Positions 1 through 7,955 of a stretch of 36,484 nt of DNA are shown one piece after another (the first letter of the stretch is position 1; each line of letters begins with the position of its first letter). The notes below the pieces were generated by a model. It saw only the letters and a program-made list of their open reading frames with translations, did not search any database and was not told the origin of the DNA. The position numbers were made by a program, and so were the translations under genes. The DNA comes from Bacteroidota bacterium (GTDB lineage Bacteria > Bacteroidota > Bacteroidia > AKYH767-A > JABDAW01). The DNA lies in NCBI GenBank assembly GCA_023251595.1, contig JAHEYM010000001.1, positions 8,675 to 45,158 on the forward strand, in the 5' to 3' direction.

Positions 1-227
1 CGATATTTTTTTAATTCATAATAAGCTATGCCAAGACGAAGTCGCAAATAATAGTAGTCAAAATTCTGAGCAACAGCCTCGTTTCCGAATTGAATCAATT
101 CTTTCCAGTTTTTATCCGTATACAGTTTATAGGATTTAGACTCTACAGTGGCGGAGGTCAATTTCTCCTGCGCATGTGCAGGAAGGAAATAACAAACGAA
201 GAAAACGACAACTATTAGTCTATACAT
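1..227 (-). CDS. Partial CDS (N-terminus only, continues past window start): secreted protein, possibly TPR-like
   Basis: Absent from the ORF track because it runs off the window. Reverse complement from the ATG at 227 reads MYRLIVVVFFVCYFLPAHAQEKLTSATVESKSYKLYTDKNWKELIQFGNEAVAQNFDYYYLRLRLGIAYYELKKY with no stop to position 1. Signal-peptide-like N-terminus. Start overlaps the stop of the upstream gene by 13 nt. Confidence 0.4.
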   Translation of the reverse strand, partial: MYRLIVVVFFVCYFLPAHAQEKLTSATVESKSYKLYTDKNWKELIQFGNEAVAQNFDYYYLRLRLGIAYYELKKY

Positions 228-2413
228 TCTGCTACTATTTTTTGATTTTTACCTGTTATTGTGATTTTTTCGATCCGACCTTTTTTCAAAACAAAATCGA
301 ATTCTCTTTTCTCCAAAACACGGTTTCCACTAAATGATTCAGCACTTGATTTTAAAGTGATTTGCTGTGGATTTGCAATATCATCTATTGAGGTATGAAC
401 AGCATTAAATTTCGCCCTGAGAAATATATGAAATGGTGCGATAAAATCGTGGAAGAACCGGATCACTCCACCAAAATAATTATGAACCGGTAGTACATCC
501 GATACATCCATTCCGCCATAATAACCTAAAATAATTTTATGCGCACCTGAATAGAAATGAAACAACAGTGAATTCTGATCACCATAAAAGTCAGTGAAAT
601 AATGAAGTGTTTCGTTATTGGTGAAGTATGCCGAAGACTTGGTTGTGGGACAATATATATAAGCTCTGTTGTATGCATCAGAATAAATTTCCCATTTCAG
701 TTCCTGATCTCCGCCCTTCATTCCCGTAACTTTAAATTGCATCGTCTCACCGGGAATAAAATTAAATGCCTCGCGAATAAGTTTTGTCGTTGCTACCCGG
801 GATACATATTCCCCCTCGTCAGGATATTCAAATGAATGAAAACTATATTTATCTAAATCCCTCGAAATATAATAACTCAGGGGATATTGCAGTGTTTTAG
901 ATCCGATAGAAGGCGTTGCCTGAATCTGGAAATGAATATGCGGTTCGGGGGAACGACCTGAATTACCACAGTTTGCGATGATATCTCCTTTACTGACATA
1001 ATCACCAATCTTCACCCTAAAACTCCCTTTCTTAATGTGTGAAATTTTTGTAAATAATAAATCTGCATGTTTAATCACAATGGTATTTCCCCAATTATGT
1101 TGCAAATCAACATTGCCAATTTCATTATCTTCTACGTCATCATTAAGCGCAATAACATAACCGCCGGCAGGAGAAAGAACGGGAAGATTATAACAGTAAA
1201 AATCGGTTGTTGAGGTCCCCGGCAAACGAAAAGTTTTAGACATTTCATCAACGACAACAAAATCCCATGCATATTTCCAATCATCTTTATGCGTGATTTT
1301 CCCGTCAATTCCTTGCGAAACAAACCATTCACCAAAAAAAGGAAGATTTATATGAAAGTAAGTTTCGTTTTTATAGCGCTCCATCCGATAATGATGGAGA
1401 TATAAATTTTTCTCGGGTGAATATAATTGAACGCTCACAAGATCCGGTCGTTTAGGAACAGCTCTTAAATTAAGCACATATAATATCAACATCACCAGAA
1501 AATTAAAAGGTAAAGAATAAAGAGGTAGTTGATAAATGGAGAGAAGTCCGCCTAGCGCAGATATTAAAATTCCTGTAAGCGGGGTACAGACGACGACCAA
1601 TAAATAAGATCGGAATGATGGCACCAAAAAGAATCCGCCCAACGCAATCGCCGTGAGAATAAAATTAAATCCGATATAACTATATTGAAGTTCTGTGAAA
1701 TTTCCCTGAATAAGATAGTAAAAAAGATATCCGGTTGAAAATCCCAAAAGAGAAAGGGAGAATGCAATTCGCGAACAGAATAGGAGTCCAACTGCAATTA
1801 AAACCCCTGAAATAATATTATATTGAAATAAAATAGCGCCGAGTGATTTAAGATACACCTCAATAAACCGTGGAATGGGAATTGTATTTATATCGTTATA
1901 AAACTTCACAAGCCGCGGTCCACCCCAGCTCCACAATTCATTATATGTATATATACCTCGTTCACTTAAATGCAATGCACCGTAGTTCCTGGCGCTAAGA
2001 ATTACAAGCCAGATTCCAATCATAAACGGAATACTAAGAAAGGGTATGCCGTGTCGCGAGGTTAAAGCAGAAACTGAAACCGTGATGAGTAACGTAAGAA
2101 CGGAAACCAGGACAAGAAACAAGAAAAATTCGGGATTAAATTGATAAAATATCCCCATCACCATTCCCATCATCAGGGAATTATATCCATACGTTCCGTT
2201 CCGCGTTAAGGCAGGATTAAATCCAAACCACCGACTGAACAAAATTGAGATCAATACAGCGAGTAAGCCACTAAGACCGGCGAAAGGATCTACAAATGAA
2301 GCTAGCAATAAAAGCCAGGCGAATCGTTTATTATCCGAAAAAAATATCTGTGAATAGCTGTTAATCGAGCCTTCATAATAATTTTTCGATATGTCGATGA
2401 TTCGTCCCTTCAC
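215..2413 (-). CDS. Fusion protein: N-terminal urea-transporter (UT) family membrane domain plus C-terminal M23 (LytM-type) metallopeptidase domain
   Basis: The N-terminal ~330 aa shows the internally duplicated UT signature: SQIFFSDN...YGYNSLMMG...IPFLSIPF, then ILFQYN...IGFNFILTAIALGG...LPLYSLPF. The C-terminal part carries the M23 motif GNSGRSPEPHIHFQI preceded by a WDFVVVD-type segment. Confidence 0.8.
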   Translation of the reverse strand: MKGRIIDISKNYYEGSINSYSQIFFSDNKRFAWLLLLASFVDPFAGLSGLLAVLISILFSRWFGFNPALTRNGTYGYNSLMMGMVMGIFYQFNPEFFLFLVLVSVLTLLITVSVSALTSRHGIPFLSIPFMIGIWLVILSARNYGALHLSERGIYTYNELWSWGGPRLVKFYNDINTIPIPRFIEVYLKSLGAILFQYNIISGVLIAVGLLFCSRIAFSLSLLGFSTGYLFYYLIQGNFTELQYSYIGFNFILTAIALGGFFLVPSFRSYLLVVVCTPLTGILISALGGLLSIYQLPLYSLPFNFLVMLILYVLNLRAVPKRPDLVSVQLYSPEKNLYLHHYRMERYKNETYFHINLPFFGEWFVSQGIDGKITHKDDWKYAWDFVVVDEMSKTFRLPGTSTTDFYCYNLPVLSPAGGYVIALNDDVEDNEIGNVDLQHNWGNTIVIKHADLLFTKISHIKKGSFRVKIGDYVSKGDIIANCGNSGRSPEPHIHFQIQATPSIGSKTLQYPLSYYISRDLDKYSFHSFEYPDEGEYVSRVATTKLIREAFNFIPGETMQFKVTGMKGGDQELKWEIYSDAYNRAYIYCPTTKSSAYFTNNETLHYFTDFYGDQNSLLFHFYSGAHKIILGYYGGMDVSDVLPVHNYFGGVIRFFHDFIAPFHIFLRAKFNAVHTSIDDIANPQQITLKSSAESFSGNRVLEKREFDFVLKKGRIEKITITGKNQKIVAECID

Positions 2414-2420
2414 ACAGCAA

Positions 2421-3779
2421 TTATAGTTTTATTTCTTTCAGATAAGCAGGAAGAACTTCTTCGGACTCTATAGTTTGAAGGGTTTCTCTTTTACGAATAA
2501 CGTGTGCTTTTTCTTCCAGATCGATTAATACAATTGCCGGGCGAAGTGAAATAAATTGCATCCACTGTGTCATATTATAAGCACCAACACAATGCACGAC
2601 TACCTGATCATTTCGTTTCAGAGGAGGCAAAGTTACATTTTCGCGAATCACGTCGATATTCATACAAAGAGGTCCGTATAAAACAGCATCTTCGGTGTAT
2701 TGCGAGAATTCTTGTGCAGGCGAAATTTTATGATCGTACCAGAATGAAGTAAACATAATATTAACACCAAAATCCATAATAGTTGCCCTTCTGCCGTCGG
2801 CCAAACGTTTATTTGAAATTACAGATCCGAGAAGATAACCCGCATCATCTACCAACGCACGTCCGGTTTCAAGAATCAGCAAAGGTAAGTCAGATTCTCC
2901 AAATCCTGCATTTAAAATTGCAGTAGTAATCGCCTCTGCAAACTGATCGAATGAAGGAGAAGAATCGGCACCTTGCAAATACGAACCTTTCAGTGTGTTT
3001 TTAGATGCAAACCCACCACCAAGATCGATATATTGGATATTTTTCTTATATTTCAGTTTCACCCCCAGCGCGAGGTCTGATAGCTTGGTCGCGGCGACAG
3101 CATAAGCGCTTGGGGCAAGCATGAAAGTGCCTATGTGTGCGTGAAGTCCGACGAGATCCATTTTATCGTTTAACATAATTTTATTGATGGCATCCCATGC
3201 TTGTCCGTTTTCATAATTGAAACCGAATCGATCCCACATCGGATAAATTCCGGTATCCATATTCACTCTGATCGCGACTCTGGGCCTTTTATTCATCTCG
3301 GTCGCAAGCTCTTTAATTAAATATAATTCATCGAGGTGATCGATATGAATCATCGAATTATTATATATAGCGGCCCTCAGTTCCGACTCGGTTTTGTCGG
3401 GACCATTAAATATAATTTTATTTCCGGGCACTCCGTTCTTCAATGCTTTCTGGTATTCAAAACCCGAAACTGCCTCGGCCCAGGAGCCTTCCTGATGATA
3501 AACATTGCACACGGCATTCATATAGTTTGTTTTATATGACCATGCAAATTGAACTTTCGGATAGCGGTTTTTAAAAGCCCTGTTCGCATCCTTATAATTC
3601 TGACGCATTGTTTTTTCCGACAAAACAAAAAGTGGCGAACCGAATTTCGTGATCAGATCTTTCACACGGTTTCCATCGATTTCAGTAACGGGTGCATATT
3701 CGGTTTTTGTTCCGAATTTATTCATCACTCCGGCATTCAGTCTCTGAATTACCGGTCTTTCATATTGGATTTTTTTCAT
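2421..3779 (-). CDS. PLP-dependent decarboxylase, fold type III (Orn/DAP/Arg decarboxylase family 2); substrate unknown
   Basis: Family motifs in the canonical order: PLP-lysine segment FAWSYKTNY, GLHAHIGT, IDLGGGF, ETGRALV, GPLCMNID, VGAYN. Confidence 0.85.
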   Translation of the reverse strand: MKKIQYERPVIQRLNAGVMNKFGTKTEYAPVTEIDGNRVKDLITKFGSPLFVLSEKTMRQNYKDANRAFKNRYPKVQFAWSYKTNYMNAVCNVYHQEGSWAEAVSGFEYQKALKNGVPGNKIIFNGPDKTESELRAAIYNNSMIHIDHLDELYLIKELATEMNKRPRVAIRVNMDTGIYPMWDRFGFNYENGQAWDAINKIMLNDKMDLVGLHAHIGTFMLAPSAYAVAATKLSDLALGVKLKYKKNIQYIDLGGGFASKNTLKGSYLQGADSSPSFDQFAEAITTAILNAGFGESDLPLLILETGRALVDDAGYLLGSVISNKRLADGRRATIMDFGVNIMFTSFWYDHKISPAQEFSQYTEDAVLYGPLCMNIDVIRENVTLPPLKRNDQVVVHCVGAYNMTQWMQFISLRPAIVLIDLEEKAHVIRKRETLQTIESEEVLPAYLKEIKL

Positions 3780-3809
3780 ATCTTGAAGTTCAGGTGTTTT
3801 GTGGTATTA

Positions 3810-3911
3810 GGTTGAAGGGTTGAAGGGTTGAAGGGTTGAAGGGTTTTTGCATGAATAGACATTTAATTAATTATTTTTATTTTCAACTCTTCAACCTTTC
3901 AACTTTTCAAC
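3810..3911. repeat. Inverted pair of octamer tandem arrays: (GGTTGAAG)x4 at 3810-3841 and (TTCAACNN)x4 at 3882-3911, able to form a long interrupted hairpin
   Basis: Read directly. Four 6-bp GTTGAA/TTCAAC blocks can pair, separated by 2-nt partly mismatched positions, around an AT-rich ~40-nt loop. It fills the gap between the ATP-grasp stop and the decarboxylase start. Confidence 0.75.
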
Positions 3912-3917
3912 TATTTA

Positions 3918-4967
3918 TTAAAGCTCTCCTAGCGTTGATATCTTTTCAAATTCTGATAATTCAACAATCATATCATAGGCATACCGGATAAACATTTTTC
4001 CGACATCGAATTTTTTCCAGGGTTTGACAGGCATTCCCATTGCCATTTTTACCAATGCTTCAGGATGATTTTGTCCGCAACCGACCGCAAGATAAACCCA
4101 AGCCGGAAATCGCGGATTAATTTCAATTAAATAATAATCTCCTTCCCTTGTTTTAATTATTTCGAGTTCCATTCCACCTCTCCACTTTGTCGATTTAATT
4201 AACTTTCTTGTAGTCTTCATCAATTCATCGTCATCGAGAGAAATACCCGCCCAAGCTTTTCCTTTATCCGTTATATACTGTTTTCGCATTGGTACTGCAC
4301 CGATTGTATTTCCTTTGCCATCGCCCAGAGCGGTAACATTCACCTCCGAACCATATACATATTGTTGAACGATGATTGGCAATCCCCATTTCGCTGAAAT
4401 TTTATTGAAATAGGTCACAGCTTGTTCGGGTGTGTAAGCAACGGAAGCATCGTAATATTGACCTTTTACGACAAGCGGGTAAGTAAATTCTGCGCGCAAA
4501 CCGGGAATATCATGAATCGAAAATATTTTTTTGCTGTGTGGAACTTTAATCCCATGTTTAATTCCATATTCATTTAAACAATGTTTTTGACGCGCTTCGA
4601 ATTGTTCTGATGTCGGGAGGAATGTTTTTATTCCAAGATCATCACGTAGGGTTTCTTCCAATTTTATGAAGTTGAATAATTCGGCATCAAAATTCGGAAT
4701 TAACACATCAATATTTTCGATGGAATTAATATATCTCAATCTTGTAAGAAGACTCGCAACGCCCGAAGAAGGAAAAGGAATCTGATAGGTTTTATCGACC
4801 AGATCGTGCATATATATACCTGGCTCGAGCGTCTCGTACGAAAGTCCGATGATCCGGACATCAAAGTCCTTACTGTCGCGAAGTGCACGTATCACAGGTA
4901 CCCCGGGGCCCGGACTATCGATGGCATTAAGTCCCGTTACCGCGACGTTAATTAGTGGCTTTTTCAT
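3918..4967 (-). CDS. ATP-grasp family ligase (carboxylate-amine/peptide ligase type); substrate unknown
   Basis: 349 aa with a pre-ATP-grasp Rossmann-like N-terminus (VAVTGLNA..PG), a central YPLVVKG segment and the C-terminal Mg/ATP motif LIEINPRFPAW typical of ATP-grasp enzymes. Start overlaps the upstream PqqD-like gene by 20 nt. Confidence 0.8.
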   Translation of the reverse strand: MKKPLINVAVTGLNAIDSPGPGVPVIRALRDSKDFDVRIIGLSYETLEPGIYMHDLVDKTYQIPFPSSGVASLLTRLRYINSIENIDVLIPNFDAELFNFIKLEETLRDDLGIKTFLPTSEQFEARQKHCLNEYGIKHGIKVPHSKKIFSIHDIPGLRAEFTYPLVVKGQYYDASVAYTPEQAVTYFNKISAKWGLPIIVQQYVYGSEVNVTALGDGKGNTIGAVPMRKQYITDKGKAWAGISLDDDELMKTTRKLIKSTKWRGGMELEIIKTREGDYYLIEINPRFPAWVYLAVGCGQNHPEALVKMAMGMPVKPWKKFDVGKMFIRYAYDMIVELSEFEKISTLGEL

Positions 4968-5217
4968 CTTTTTCTTCGGTTTCCATAAGATTGAACCTGT
5001 TCAGCATGTTCACGAAATCGTAAAAGTCTTTTTCGAAGGTGGCATCATCGGTAAGATATTGAGCCAGGATCGCTTTTTTGACTTGTTCCGCGGTTTTCAT
5101 TTCTTGTAATAACCGAATGATTTCCAGTCCGATAGGATTTGTAGAGAAGGAGTCGCCGGTTGACGGATTGAAAACGAATCCGGAGTCGCTGAGTGCAATG
5201 TTTCGCTTGATGTTCAT
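4948..5217 (-). CDS. PqqD-family small protein (RiPP-recognition-element / peptide chaperone fold) with an acidic C-terminal tail
   Basis: 89 aa. The pattern FVFNPSTGDSFSTNPIGLEIIRLLQEMKTAEQVKKAILAQY...FEKDFYDFVNMLNRFNL matches the PqqD consensus (NP.TG....LN..G..I...L....t..ei...l...Y.v......D...F...L...gl). Tail is METEEKDEKATN. Confidence 0.75.
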   Translation of the reverse strand: MNIKRNIALSDSGFVFNPSTGDSFSTNPIGLEIIRLLQEMKTAEQVKKAILAQYLTDDATFEKDFYDFVNMLNRFNLMETEEKDEKATN

Positions 5218-5231
5218 GGTTTTATGTGTTT

Positions 5232-5279
5232 GTCGATAGGTTGATAGGTTGATGGGTTGAAGGGTTGAAGGGTTGATGG
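5232..5279. repeat. Six-unit octamer tandem array GTCGATAG GTTGATAG GTTGATGG GTTGAAGG GTTGAAGG GTTGATGG
   Basis: Read directly. Begins 15 nt upstream of the PqqD-like start codon. Same word family as 3810-3911. Confidence 0.8.
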
Positions 5280-5397
5280 TGTAATGTGCTTACAAAGGTG
5301 GGACTGGAACAAAGCAAGGTCGTTACAGTTTAAAATGAAAATGTTATAAAATTAGGTTTTTGACTGCTCTTGGCTGTTTTTGTAACTCTTTGCATCG

Positions 5398-5440
5398 TGA
5401 CCCCATCCCCGACCCTTCCCCAAAAAGGGAAGGGAGGAAA
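5398..5440. repeat. GC-rich hairpin element TGACCCCATCCCCGACCCTTCCCCAAAAAGGGAAGGGAGGAAA (copy 1 of 2)
   Basis: Near-identical copy at 31575-31616. Core palindrome is CCCTTCCC-CAAAAA-GGGAAGGG. Confidence 0.8.
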
Positions 5441-5466
5441 GAATTCATTCTTTGCGAAAAACATTT

Positions 5467-5508
5467 TCTTTGTGCCTTTGCGTCTTCGCAGCCAAATTAG
5501 TATTTTTG
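5467..5508 (+). promoter_or_regulatory. Dispersed repeat copy containing a full Bacteroidota-type promoter (-33 TTTG 5477-5480, 20-nt spacer, -7 TATTTTTG 5501-5508)
   Basis: Matches TTTG-N20-TAnnTTTG, with the -7 box 20 nt upstream of the ATG at 5529. The 5467-5499 part is ~85% identical to 22997-23030. Confidence 0.5.
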
Positions 5509-5528
5509 TTTCTAAATTTATAAATGAC

Positions 5529-5903
5529 ATGAGTGAAACGCTTGAATCCGTTTTCAAAGCAGTTAAACCACTCTTAATTCCATATGGAAAAAAGTTGGAT
5601 GTGCGTGGCGATGGGGAGAAAAATTATGCTATATATACAGTTAAGCCCGTCACGATGTTTGGAAGGGAATTTCCAAATCTGTTTTTTGCATCTGTTCAGA
5701 TTCAAAAGAATTTTGTCGGACTTTATTTCTTTCCTATATATACAAACCCTGATAAATTTACTGATCTACCGCCAGAATTAAAAAAATGTCTGAAAGGGAA
5801 ATCCTGTTTCCACATTAAAAAAAGCGATCCGGTTTTAATGAAACAAATTGCAGATCTATTGAAAAAAGGGGCAGAACTATATAAGAAGGGAGGGATTATT
5901 TGA
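5529..5903 (+). CDS. Small conserved protein, DUF1801/YdhG-like (tentative)
   Basis: The ORF track starts at 5370, but the first 53 codons translate repeat elements. I chose the internal ATG at 5529 (MSETLESVFKAV...), which sits behind the predicted promoter. The domain call rests only on general resemblance. Confidence 0.45.
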   Translation: MSETLESVFKAVKPLLIPYGKKLDVRGDGEKNYAIYTVKPVTMFGREFPNLFFASVQIQKNFVGLYFFPIYTNPDKFTDLPPELKKCLKGKSCFHIKKSDPVLMKQIADLLKKGAELYKKGGII

Positions 5904-5905
5904 GA

Positions 5906-6478
5906 TCACTTATAAAAGTGCATTTCCTTCACATACTCCCAAACTTTTTCCGTCAGCATATAACGCACATCTTTTTTATTCTTAATTGCATCTCGGATAA
6001 ATGTGGAAGAAATTTCCATCAAAGGAGCTTCAATTAATTTTACGTGAGGGTGGGTGATGAATTTTCCACCGGAAGAATTTTTTCTGGGATAAACATAAAT
6101 CTCATATTGCTCCAGAATCTGTTCGTAATTCTTCCATTTATCAAACGTATCTAAAATATCGGTGCCCGCAATCAACACAAATTTATCGTCGGGATGTTGT
6201 TCTTGTATATATGTAAGCGTGTTGATCGTGTATGAGGGTATAGGTAGGGAGAATTCAATATTCGATGCTTTTAATTTCAAATTATATTCGATCGACATTC
6301 TCACCATCATTAATCTTTGAACATCGGGTAGGAGTGTATGCCTTATCTTCAAAGGATTCTGGGGACTCACCACAAACCACACCTGATCGAGATCTGTGAA
6401 TTCTGACATGTAACTGCCAATCACCAGATGACCGATGTGAAATGGATTAAATGTACCGAAAAACAAACCGATTTTCAT
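5906..6478 (-). CDS. nadD: Nicotinate-nucleotide adenylyltransferase
   Basis: 190 aa with the N-terminal GTFNPFHIGH nucleotidyltransferase motif and a C-terminal ISSTFIRD motif. Confidence 0.9.
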   Translation of the reverse strand: MKIGLFFGTFNPFHIGHLVIGSYMSEFTDLDQVWFVVSPQNPLKIRHTLLPDVQRLMMVRMSIEYNLKLKASNIEFSLPIPSYTINTLTYIQEQHPDDKFVLIAGTDILDTFDKWKNYEQILEQYEIYVYPRKNSSGGKFITHPHVKLIEAPLMEISSTFIRDAIKNKKDVRYMLTEKVWEYVKEMHFYK

Positions 6479-6496
6479 GTGTTAGTGTTGAGGTAG

Positions 6497-6516
6497 GGGC
6501 AATTCATGAATTGCCC
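6497..6516. repeat. Perfect 20-bp palindrome GGGCAATTCATGAATTGCCC
   Basis: Read directly. Abuts the gmk stop codon (6517-6519). A sister palindrome lies at 19866-19885. Confidence 0.85.
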
Positions 6517-7083
6517 TTACGATTTCAAGAATTTATCTACCATTTGTTCTGCCTTCATTAACGTTTCGTGCAGATCCTGATTGATGATTACATGATCGAA
6601 TAATTTCGCATATCCTAATTCCTGTTTTGCTTTATCCATACGTTGCTGAAGACTGGCAGGATTCTCCGTTCTTCTTGCGTATAATCTTTCTTCGAGCGCT
6701 TCAATCGAAGGGGGCATCACAAATACTGCCAATGCCTTTTCTCCGAATTGTTTTTTGAGAGCGAGTCCGCCACGAACATCTACATCAAAAATTACTGTTT
6801 TATTTTGCGCCCACAATTTTTCGAGTTCAGATTTTAAGGTTCCGTAATAAACACCATTATAAACTTCTTCCCATTCAATAAACTCATTCTCTTTTATTTT
6901 GTGAAGAAAATCTTTTTCCGAAATAAATTGATAATCAACCCCATCTTTTTCAATGCCCCGCAACTTCCGGGTCGTTGCAGAAACCGAAAATCCCAACGCT
7001 GAATTTCTCGCCAAAAGATGTTTGGTGACGGTAGTCTTACCAGAACCCGACGGACCACAAAAGAGAATTATTTTTCCTTGCAT
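6517..7083 (-). CDS. gmk: Guanylate kinase
   Basis: 188 aa with P-loop GPSGSGKTT and an SATTR..R..E.DG.DY.F segment. Confidence 0.93.
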   Translation of the reverse strand: MQGKIILFCGPSGSGKTTVTKHLLARNSALGFSVSATTRKLRGIEKDGVDYQFISEKDFLHKIKENEFIEWEEVYNGVYYGTLKSELEKLWAQNKTVIFDVDVRGGLALKKQFGEKALAVFVMPPSIEALEERLYARRTENPASLQQRMDKAKQELGYAKLFDHVIINQDLHETLMKAEQMVDKFLKS

Positions 7084-7085
7084 TA

Positions 7086-7955
7086 TTATAAAATATTTAA
7101 AAGTTGTTCTTTAATTTTTTCGATTCCGTCTTTCATCTGAACAACGATTTTCTGAATTTGCGCATCATTCGCTTTCGATCCGATCGTATTTACTTCTCTT
7201 CCCATTTCCTGAGTAATAAAACCGAGCTTTTTTCCCGTGTTTTCACTCGCACCAAGCATTTCATCAAAATATTTTATATGCGCGCGTAAACGAACTTTTT
7301 CTTCTGTGACATCTAATTTTTCAACATAAAAAATAAGCTCCTGTTCCAAACGATTTTCATCCAAACGATTTTTAGAAATGACATCAGCCAAACCATCCAT
7401 GAGTCTGGCACGCATTCTTTCCATACGGTCGGGATCGATTAATTCAATTTCATCGGCAAATTTCGCCAATTCCGCCGAACGGATTTTTAATTCTTTTTCA
7501 AGCTGTTTTCCTTCAATTCTCCTGAATTCATCGCAATTATCTATGGCGGTATCAATCGCACCTCTGAGAATAAAATATTCATCATCAGAAATTTCGGATC
7601 TTCCACCCGAAGTAATTTCCGGAAATTTCATCACCAAATTAAATATATCTGTATCCTTCGCTCCTAATTCATTTGCTAGAGAGGATAATTCATCATAATA
7701 ACTTTTTGCGACATCGCGATTAATATTGGCAGTTTTATTTCCACCGGTATCGCTTCCCATTGTCAGATCAATTTTTCCACGTTCCATACGTGTTGTAATA
7801 TCTTTCCGAACTTCAATATCTTTCTCTTTCAAACTAAAAGGAATCCGCATATTAAGATCAAGAAATTTACTATTGAGTGTTTTCACTTCAACCGTATAAA
7901 CTTTATCTCCAATACGGCAGGAAGACTTGCCGTAACCTGTCATCGATTTTATCAT
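7086..7955 (-). CDS. yicC: YicC-family stress-induced protein
   Basis: 289 aa with the SMTGYG N-terminus and the C-terminal DUF1732-like EMGREVNTIGSKAND segment. Confidence 0.85.
   Translation of the reverse strand: MIKSMTGYGKSSCRIGDKVYTVEVKTLNSKFLDLNMRIPFSLKEKDIEVRKDITTRMERGKIDLTMGSDTGGNKTANINRDVAKSYYDELSSLANELGAKDTDIFNLVMKFPEITSGGRSEISDDEYFILRGAIDTAIDNCDEFRRIEGKQLEKELKIRSAELAKFADEIELIDPDRMERMRARLMDGLADVISKNRLDENRLEQELIFYVEKLDVTEEKVRLRAHIKYFDEMLGASENTGKKLGFITQEMGREVNTIGSKANDAQIQKIVVQMKDGIEKIKEQLLNIL

Follow-up and report, generated by a model that had tools for sequence, protein, structure and literature searches.

The window analysed here is a 36,484-nt stretch of a Bacteroidota bacterium (assembly GCA_023251595.1, contig JAHEYM010000001.1, positions 8,675 to 45,158). 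Its first part carries a minus-strand operon (215–5217) encoding a PqqD-fold protein, an ATP-grasp ligase, a pyridoxal 5'-phosphate (PLP) decarboxylase and a fusion of a urea transporter (UT)-type channel with an M23 metallopeptidase. They belong to a six-gene system that is conserved in several bacterial phyla. We regard the system as new in kind. It fails the defining tests of lasso peptide, graspetide, LysW, BtrI/J/K, NIS-siderophore (nonribosomal peptide synthetase-independent siderophore), LysA, Yut and exopolymer secretion systems. Its chemistry, as we infer it below, may prove to belong to carrier or prodrug-type biosynthesis, as an unusual branch. An earlier note on this DNA had not recognised the locus as a described pathway, and a full-text literature search, with the 2009 amidoligase survey by Iyer et al. 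outside its coverage, gave no description of the operon. The wider interpretation offered in that note was borne out in part. It had missed two envelope genes, a conserved promoter-proximal direct repeat and the distribution of the system over several phyla.

Open reading frame (ORF) calling placed four minus-strand genes where the earlier note had put them, with the same spacings, and Pfam searches confirmed every family assignment made there. The first gene (4948–5217) encodes an 89-aa PqqD-fold protein (PF05402), similar to the chaperones known as RREs (recognition elements of RiPPs, peptides that the ribosome synthesizes and that are modified after translation). It is followed by the gene for a 349-aa ATP-grasp ligase (3918–4967; PF15632 and PF02655) and by that for a 452-aa alanine-racemase-fold (AR-fold) PLP decarboxylase (2421–3779; PF02784 and PF00278) of the FigC/diaminopimelate decarboxylase (DAPDC)/BtrK clade. 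The fourth gene (215–2413) encodes the 732-aa UT/M23/all-beta fusion (PF03253 and PF01551, and an AlphaFold2 model). The PqqD and ATP-grasp genes overlap by 20 nt, the ATP-grasp and decarboxylase genes are 138 nt apart, and only 7 nt separate the decarboxylase gene from the fusion gene. The operon continues past position 215. A fifth gene starts with an ATG at 227–225, overlaps the end of the fusion gene by 13 nt and extends past the window start, so that only its beginning lies in the window (1–227); an exact-protein look-up meant to reach beyond that point yielded a 3.2-kb contig only. Its translation begins MYRLIVVVFFVCYFLPAHAQ and comprises a signal peptide and a TPR-like region. The operon in the window is thus tight, with translational coupling, and the four-gene unit described earlier was too small.

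For the analysis of conservation, ATP-grasp homologues were aligned and a one-genome-per-species collection was scanned, which gave at least about 589 loci. The best 80 of these, all from Bacteroidota-type metagenome-assembled genomes (MAGs) and with an ATP-grasp identity of 67–81%, were examined by calling and clustering their ORFs. Each component was counted among the loci with enough sequence. The gene order was PqqD, ATP-grasp, decarboxylase, UT-M23, c5 (TPR and probable outer-membrane barrel; the cluster of the fifth window gene) and c4 (TPR). The four genes co-occurred in related genomes, a point that the earlier note had set as a check: PqqD lay upstream of ATP-grasp in 79/79 loci, the decarboxylase lay downstream in 70/70, and the UT-M23 fusion was found in 58/61. 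The c5 gene was present in 48/52 loci, and c4 lay downstream in 43/52 and upstream in several of the remainder. This co-conservation is far beyond chance, and the genes are one functional unit. Across orders, the ATP-grasp and decarboxylase sequences were 70–87% identical.

Both additional proteins have the look of envelope components. The c4 protein (about 205 aa) has a signal peptide and TPR repeats. The c5 protein (about 400 aa) has a signal peptide, a short N-terminal TPR region and a C-terminal end (GLKF, for example) of the kind typical for outer-membrane proteins. Its C-terminal part is a probable outer-membrane beta-barrel; in a profile search of c5 against the PDB, the TPR part only was matched. 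Two separate contigs of one MAG (Cyclobacteriaceae CTOTU1241; loci L019 and L021) each carried PqqD, ATP-grasp and decarboxylase genes, which could reflect either a mixed bin or a genome with two paralogous operons. No annotated plasmid-borne copies of the operon were found. The automatic database names of its products are "urea transporter", "murein DD-endopeptidase MepM", "carbamoyl-phosphate synthase large subunit" and "diaminopimelate decarboxylase".

The same gene set was recovered at greater evolutionary distances. Metagenome loci with an ATP-grasp only 38–46% identical to that of the window still had PqqD, ATP-grasp, decarboxylase and UT-M23 genes, and at one of them (L096) a barrel-like protein of 284 aa and a TPR protein were encoded after the fusion gene. 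A CobB-type sirtuin (SIR2) took the place of the M23 domain after the UT pore in Rokubacteria and Nitrospinota. The gene order at these SIR2-type loci, and on one more metagenome contig, was secreted TPR, PqqD, double ATP-grasp, decarboxylase and UT+SIR2. The UT-sirtuin fusions (L082 13541–15229, L083 13541–15256, L085 13487–15130) had the canonical SIR2 motifs GAGxS, TQNxD, HG and CxxC...CxxC and matched an NAD-dependent protein deacylase with an E value of 2e-58. Double ATP-grasps of about 710 aa were found in Rokubacteria/Methylomirabilota, Nitrospinota and Terriglobales MAGs, in tandem in one polypeptide (L082 10001–12136, L083 10001–12139, L085 10001–12124). The doubling hints at two ligation steps, with a single module in Bacteroidota. 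Because the same gene set recurs in the SIR2-type phyla and in the divergent metagenome loci, the system is old and widespread. Its invariant core consists of a secreted TPR protein, an RRE, one or two ATP-grasp modules, a decarboxylase, and a UT pore with a C-terminal amide-cleaving enzyme.

None of the four window proteins reached a curated NCBIfam equivalog cut-off, so they are clear superfamily members outside every named functional family. The PqqD protein matched PF05402 with an E value of 2.4e-8 and 34.6 bits (cut-off 23.4), and its closest solved relative was the lasso leader-binding protein TbiB1 (5v1u, E 6.8e-7). Its N-terminal two-thirds were very conserved, and only F16, G21, N27, D64 and F68 were invariant across phyla. 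The ATP-grasp ligase had PRK12767, "CPS-like" (carbamoyl-phosphate synthase-like), as its best NCBIfam match (84.7 bits, cut-off 390) and scored 18–20 bits against Ddl models (cut-off about 245). Its sole PDB sequence match was a remote relative, 2pn1 (E 4.5e-7), and it matched MfnD weakly (E 1e-3). In a search of 50%-identity representatives, the ATP-grasp family comprised 217 clusters at E ≤ 1e-30. Among its members were natural fusions of PqqD with ATP-grasp (P0327) and of ATP-grasp with the decarboxylase (P0287 and P0450), the decarboxylase half of P0287 retaining the family motifs. These fusions tie the RRE, the ligase and the decarboxylase together.

The decarboxylase scored 238 bits against FslC (NF041039, cut-off 500) and 221.8 bits against lysA (TIGR01048, cut-off 297.9). 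Its matches in the PDB were FigC (7kh2, 202 bits), an archaeal DAPDC (1twi, 145 bits) and BtrK (79 bits). Judged by these PDB and NCBIfam scores, it is nearest to FigC/FslC and falls in the same clade as BtrK; the membership of that clade was taken from the FigC paper, which unites FigC, DAPDC, SbnH, AcsE, MccE and BtrK as decarboxylases unrelated to polyamine synthesis (PMC7857480). Many members of the clade take as substrate an amino acid that is by then in conjugated or tethered form (PMC7857480). The PLP lysine of the window enzyme is K83, in the motif SYKTN. Its Cys loop, GPLCMNIDV, was kept in at least 95% of 69 homologues, and comparison of CMNID with CMQHD in FigC/FslC and CESSD in LysA marks the loop as specific to the window family. 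Membership in LysA (meso-diaminopimelate decarboxylase) was therefore not supported, either by score or by Cys loop. Nor was membership among the FslC/FigC N-citrylornithine decarboxylases, as the score was below the family cut-off and no IucA/IucC gene was present in the conserved neighbourhood.

The fusion protein consists of a UT-type channel (residues 1–315, nt 1469–2413), an M23 metallopeptidase (about residues 355–500, nt 914–1351) and, as its last 228 residues, an all-beta domain (505–732, nt 218–901). It scored 199 bits against PF03253 and 52.6 bits against PF01551, and its AlphaFold2 model had a pLDDT of 88.9. Foldseek matched the UT part to dvUT (3k3g, E 1e-15, TMt 0.81–0.85) and the M23 part to DipM, ShyA and lysostaphin (E 1e-6 to 1e-5). 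Tested as a urea transporter, the protein has the UT fold and PF03253 but misses the Yut equivalog TIGR03441 (124 bits versus 274.6). Tested as an M23 endopeptidase, it has the fold, the zinc ligands and the catalytic histidines: H375, D384, H449, H459, H492 and H494 were invariant in 51 homologues. The C-terminal domain, modelled alone with a pLDDT of 90.8, had no convincing structural relative by Foldseek, which returned only a weak LolA-like match (E about 1e-3, TM about 0.3).

In known UT proteins the termini are intracellular, and the UT domain of the fusion is flanked by basic residues, in agreement with cytoplasmic termini. The sirtuin that takes the same position in other phyla needs NAD+, which argues that the domain after the UT pore is cytoplasmic. 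With these three lines together, the M23 domain is most likely cytoplasmic and not a cell-wall hydrolase. Both M23 enzymes and sirtuins cleave amides: sirtuins act on N-epsilon-acyl-lysine, and many M23 enzymes on epsilon-amino bonds of diaminopimelate/Lys bridges. The earlier proposal that the M23 domain releases a product and the UT-like channel moves it gains support, as far as release at a pore is concerned, from this exchange of domains. A 2026 paper on UT evolution gives ankyrin, EF-hand and M23 as UT partners and notes UT-M23 fusions without assigned function; no mention of the UT-sirtuin architecture was found in it (PMC12998343).

A precursor peptide or carrier was sought in several ways. 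No ATG occurs on the minus strand between 5218 and 5350, as had been noted before. Clustering of the 500 nt upstream of PqqD at 79 loci gave no conserved ORF of 12–90 aa, and no conserved small ORF of 18–75 aa was found within about 10 kb in 80 loci. On these two screens a co-located precursor peptide was rejected, and the scaffold peptide considered in the earlier note was not supported. SIR2-type operons had no precursor ORF either; there, the TPR gene abuts PqqD. The earlier note had also considered the acidic tail of the 89-aa protein as a carrier. This LysW-like role was rejected, as the tail varies in length and sequence and holds no acceptor residue that is invariant across phyla.

Comparison with known systems placed the operon outside each of them. 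The RRE-dependent RiPP systems share with it a PqqD/RRE-fold protein, whereas a co-encoded precursor and a class-defining partner enzyme were absent. Pfam and NCBIfam scans of the operon proteins found ATP-grasp, AR-fold decarboxylase, UT, M23 and TPR domains alone, and no radical SAM, YcaO, lasso cyclase, LanB or similar enzyme, in line with the absence of the usual RRE partners reported earlier. The lasso B1/B2/C systems are alike in that the PqqD protein is nearest to TbiB1, in the combination of RRE, peptidase and ATP-dependent amide former, and in the YxxPx(I/L) motif, which here lies on the decarboxylase. Unlike them, the window operon has no precursor gene, and the transglutaminase-fold B2 protease and the Asn-synthetase-like cyclase were absent from the operon and its conserved neighbours. 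No precursor with repeated core motifs, as expected for graspetides, was found beside the ATP-grasp gene, and a graspetide survey mentions no decarboxylase or M23 context (PMC8939145).

In the butirosin pathway (BtrI/BtrJ/BtrK), as possibly here, an amino acid is loaded by an ATP-grasp enzyme and, once tethered, is the substrate of an AR-fold PLP decarboxylase (PMC7857480). The likeness drawn in the earlier note holds for the decarboxylase, which is of the BtrK/FigC/DAPDC clade, but not for the carrier. No acyl-carrier protein, phosphopantetheine site or PP-binding (phosphopantetheinyl carrier) domain was found in the operon proteins, the small protein being of the PqqD fold, and the butirosin pathway lacks a channel-fused amidase and envelope genes. 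The closest characterised decarboxylases, FigC/FslC, SbnH and AcsE of NIS-siderophore synthesis, act after their amino acid has been linked to another acid by an amide or ester. There the ligase is an IucA/IucC synthetase; none was found near the window operon, where the ligase is an ATP-grasp enzyme. The LysW/LysX system likewise has an ATP-grasp enzyme that places an intermediate on a carrier, where it is modified by enzymes before a metallohydrolase sets it free. However, no small carrier with an invariant C-terminal acidic acceptor, such as the zinc-ribbon LysW with its C-terminal Glu, was found in the window system, and a decarboxylase stands in place of the kinase, reductase and aminotransferase steps. 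Release in LysW/LysX is by a soluble M20 enzyme, in contrast to the pore-fused M23 or sirtuin of window-type systems.

More distant parallels were also considered. In methanofuran synthesis, a decarboxylase (MfnA) and an ATP-grasp amide ligase (MfnD) cooperate, but the decarboxylase fold is different and RRE, channel and envelope components are lacking. In colibactin (ClbP/ClbM) and xenocoumacin (XcnG) synthesis, a membrane-anchored amidase removes an acyl group during export. These prodrug-activation systems use periplasmic S12 peptidases with MATE/ABC exporters in gene clusters for nonribosomal peptide and polyketide synthases, whereas the amidase of window-type systems (M23 or sirtuin) is probably cytoplasmic and forms one protein with a UT-type channel. 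Exopolymer secretion systems of the BcsC, PgaA or AlgK/AlgE type also have TPR and probable barrel genes; no glycosyltransferase was found in the conserved set. An anti-phage defence system was rejected, since none of the four proteins had a PADLOC match.

The reading that we prefer, and hold tentatively, is a cytoplasmic pathway of ligation and then decarboxylation, after which a channel-tethered amidase cleaves the amide product for export through the envelope. The PqqD-fold protein would serve in the cytoplasm as a non-covalent adaptor for the ATP-grasp ligase, which would join a carboxylate and an amino acid as an amide. The FigC/BtrK-clade decarboxylase would then strip the free alpha-carboxylate from the conjugated amino acid. 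The amide-cleaving domain on the cytoplasmic face of the UT-type pore (M23 here, a CobB-type sirtuin in other phyla) would cut the conjugate. A small nitrogenous product, freed at the pore mouth, could exit through the pore, the periplasmic TPR protein and the small outer-membrane barrel. Gene content and order, co-conservation, the natural fusions, the folds and the intactness of the catalytic residues are observed; the cytoplasmic location of the M23 domain, the nature of substrate and product, the reaction order and the direction of transport are what we infer. The sequence of ligation, decarboxylation and cleavage at the pore is favoured because amide cleavage by sirtuin and M23, the natural fusions and the kinship of the decarboxylase combine in its support.

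Several points weigh against this pathway. To form an amide and then cut it again looks futile, unless its acyl part serves for protection, as a prodrug group or as a carrier; the PqqD tail, as said, is not a carrier, and the screens for small ORFs gave no other. UT pores are narrow and, to our knowledge, known for urea-like solutes only. The positions that match the two threonines of the canonical UT pore motif hold Ser in the M23-type fusions, whereas in the UT+SIR2 fusions they are Ala and Val. The outer-membrane barrel is read from sequence only. Two of the 61 loci (L037 and L061) have PqqD, ATP-grasp and decarboxylase genes without UT-M23 or envelope genes, and at L030 (6243–8576) multicopper-oxidase-like and thioredoxin-like genes are inserted before the UT gene, which lies at the contig end.

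The PqqD protein could instead be a protein-protein adaptor whose ligand is the decarboxylase itself, a reading that we consider unlikely. It would bind the YxxPx(I/L)...NKF extension of the decarboxylase and dock this enzyme on the ATP-grasp ligase, as a metabolon working on free small molecules without a separate peptide substrate, with the remainder as in the preferred pathway. The extension (residues 1–33, nt 3681–3779) carries the motif YERPxI..LN.G..NKFG. Its Y..P.[ILVM] pattern was found in 67/68 Bacteroidota homologues, and variants such as YSKP, WSKP and YEPM...SKY could be recognised at distant loci of the M23 and SIR2 types as well as in the linker of the P0287 fusion. No PDB sequence shares the extension. 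It resembles a motif of lasso leaders, YxxPxL at positions -17 to -12, which is read by B1 proteins (PMC10368454), and the PqqD protein, with TbiB1 as its best solved relative, may bind it. The absence of a precursor ORF also fits. The one ground for the docking is a resemblance of motifs, however, and the extension may be a structural lid of the decarboxylase family. A covalent version, with a Lys-acylated "built-in carrier" on the extension, is weakened by the loss of the Lys of NKF in L089 and P0287.

A RiPP-type pathway with its precursor elsewhere in the genome is unlikely. In it, the RRE would present a leader, the ATP-grasp ligase would form a lactam or amidate the C-terminus or a side chain, perhaps using an amine that the decarboxylase supplies, and the M23 domain would remove the leader before export of the peptide through pore, TPR protein and barrel. 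Such a pathway would account for the lasso B1 likeness of the PqqD protein and for its score above the Pfam threshold, and the set of RRE, protease and ATP-dependent amide former parallels lasso synthesis. There is also a precedent for an AR-fold decarboxylase in a RiPP pathway, MccE (PMC7857480). The small-ORF screens in Bacteroidota and the SIR2-type operons speak against it, as does the UT-type pore, which is much too narrow for a peptide. Moreover, a sirtuin is no leader peptidase, and an enzyme identity of 70–87% across orders is unusual for RiPP tailoring enzymes that track a variable peptide.

Distinctly unlikely as a whole is a further reading, in which the system would represent a hitherto unrecognised class of envelope-spanning machine shared by several phyla. 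The RRE adaptor, ATP-grasp ligase and decarboxylase would build a small amine or amide while it is attached to an acyl or peptidyl group that protects it, perhaps presented through the YxxPx(I/L) tail of the decarboxylase. The pore-fused amidase, with M23 and sirtuin interchangeable, would release the product into the pore, and so couple catalysis to secretion of a signalling, osmoprotective or metal-binding metabolite.

Reversible protein modification appears improbable. Here, the ATP-grasp ligase would be the writer, the decarboxylase would edit the added residue, and the M23 or sirtuin domain would be the eraser, with the UT channel or another protein being regulated. CobB-type sirtuins are indeed protein lysine deacylases, proteins are the substrates of ATP-grasp enzymes such as RimK and those of the TTL family, and fusion to the channel holds for the eraser-type domain throughout. 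A conserved target is not apparent, however, and the secreted TPR and barrel genes would be left unexplained. The nearest relatives of the decarboxylase, moreover, use small-molecule or carrier-bound intermediates (PMC7857480). Finally, a chance cluster of ordinary genes for housekeeping or the cell wall (a urea transporter, a lysA-type diaminopimelate decarboxylase, a Ddl-like ligase and a periplasmic M23 endopeptidase) is highly improbable: the automatic database names and the match of the M23 fold to peptidoglycan hydrolases suggest it, but the equivalog models fail (lysA 222/298, Yut 124/275, Ddl 18–20/about 245), the NAD-dependent sirtuin at the M23 position implies a cytoplasmic location, and gene order is strict, with natural fusions.

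The ATP-grasp occurs at at least about 589 loci in the one-genome-per-species collection, and the same gene set occurs in Rokubacteria/Methylomirabilota, Nitrospinota and metagenome contigs as well; the enzyme identity (70–87%) is at a level typical of core metabolism. The operon is the first functional context for bacterial UT-domain fusions, and in it an RRE/PqqD protein works with neither a precursor peptide nearby nor any classical RiPP enzyme. A possible new principle is suggested as well, an amide-cleaving enzyme wired to a channel. To identify the product could bring to light a metabolite that is widespread among Bacteroidota of water and soil, and would correct the names "urea transporter", "CPS large subunit" and "DAP decarboxylase".

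Upstream of the operon, a direct repeat was found about 130 nt before the PqqD ATG (5321–5349, minus strand), with the sequence TTATAACA-N13-CTGTAACG. The motif TTATAACA-N13-yTATAACr occurred 60–200 nt (mostly 70–130) upstream of PqqD in the window and in 35/79 related loci. It was present in 18/26 loci adjoining an AraC-type gene, versus 17/53 without one, and the repeat at 5321–5349 is a probable operator. No AraC-type regulator gene was found in the 36 kb of the window, despite the presence of the site. Regulators vary in Bacteroidota: an AraC-type protein whose N-domain is weakly HMA-like is encoded at some loci, and LytTR two-component pairs are encoded at others. At two SIR2-type loci (L083 4579–7424, L085 5387–8205), genes for a sigma-54-dependent response regulator and a histidine kinase lie directly upstream in divergent orientation.

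The 138-nt gap between the ATP-grasp and decarboxylase genes (3780–3917, minus strand) folds into a long hairpin (-29.6 kcal/mol, z -6.3) made of arrays of the 8-mer CTTCAACC, with no T run after it. The arrays lie at 3808–3845 and 3881–3904, and a second site, directly before the PqqD start codon, lies at 5237–5282 (minus strand). Within the window they occur solely at these two intergenic spots of the operon. The structured repeat described in the earlier note is thus a strong hairpin, but it was rejected as a conserved regulatory part of the system: it is confined to the lineage, and other loci have gaps of 11–40 nt or unrelated repeats. Because a relative (L002) has unlike 8-mer arrays, GGGTATAG and TTTATTGT, in the same gap, a recurrent expansion of short tandem repeats at this place is suggested. 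Upstream of the operon, a divergent small gene lies at 5370–5903 (plus strand), followed by nadD-like, guanylate-kinase-like and YicC-like ORFs at 5906–7955 (minus strand), which by sequence look like housekeeping genes.

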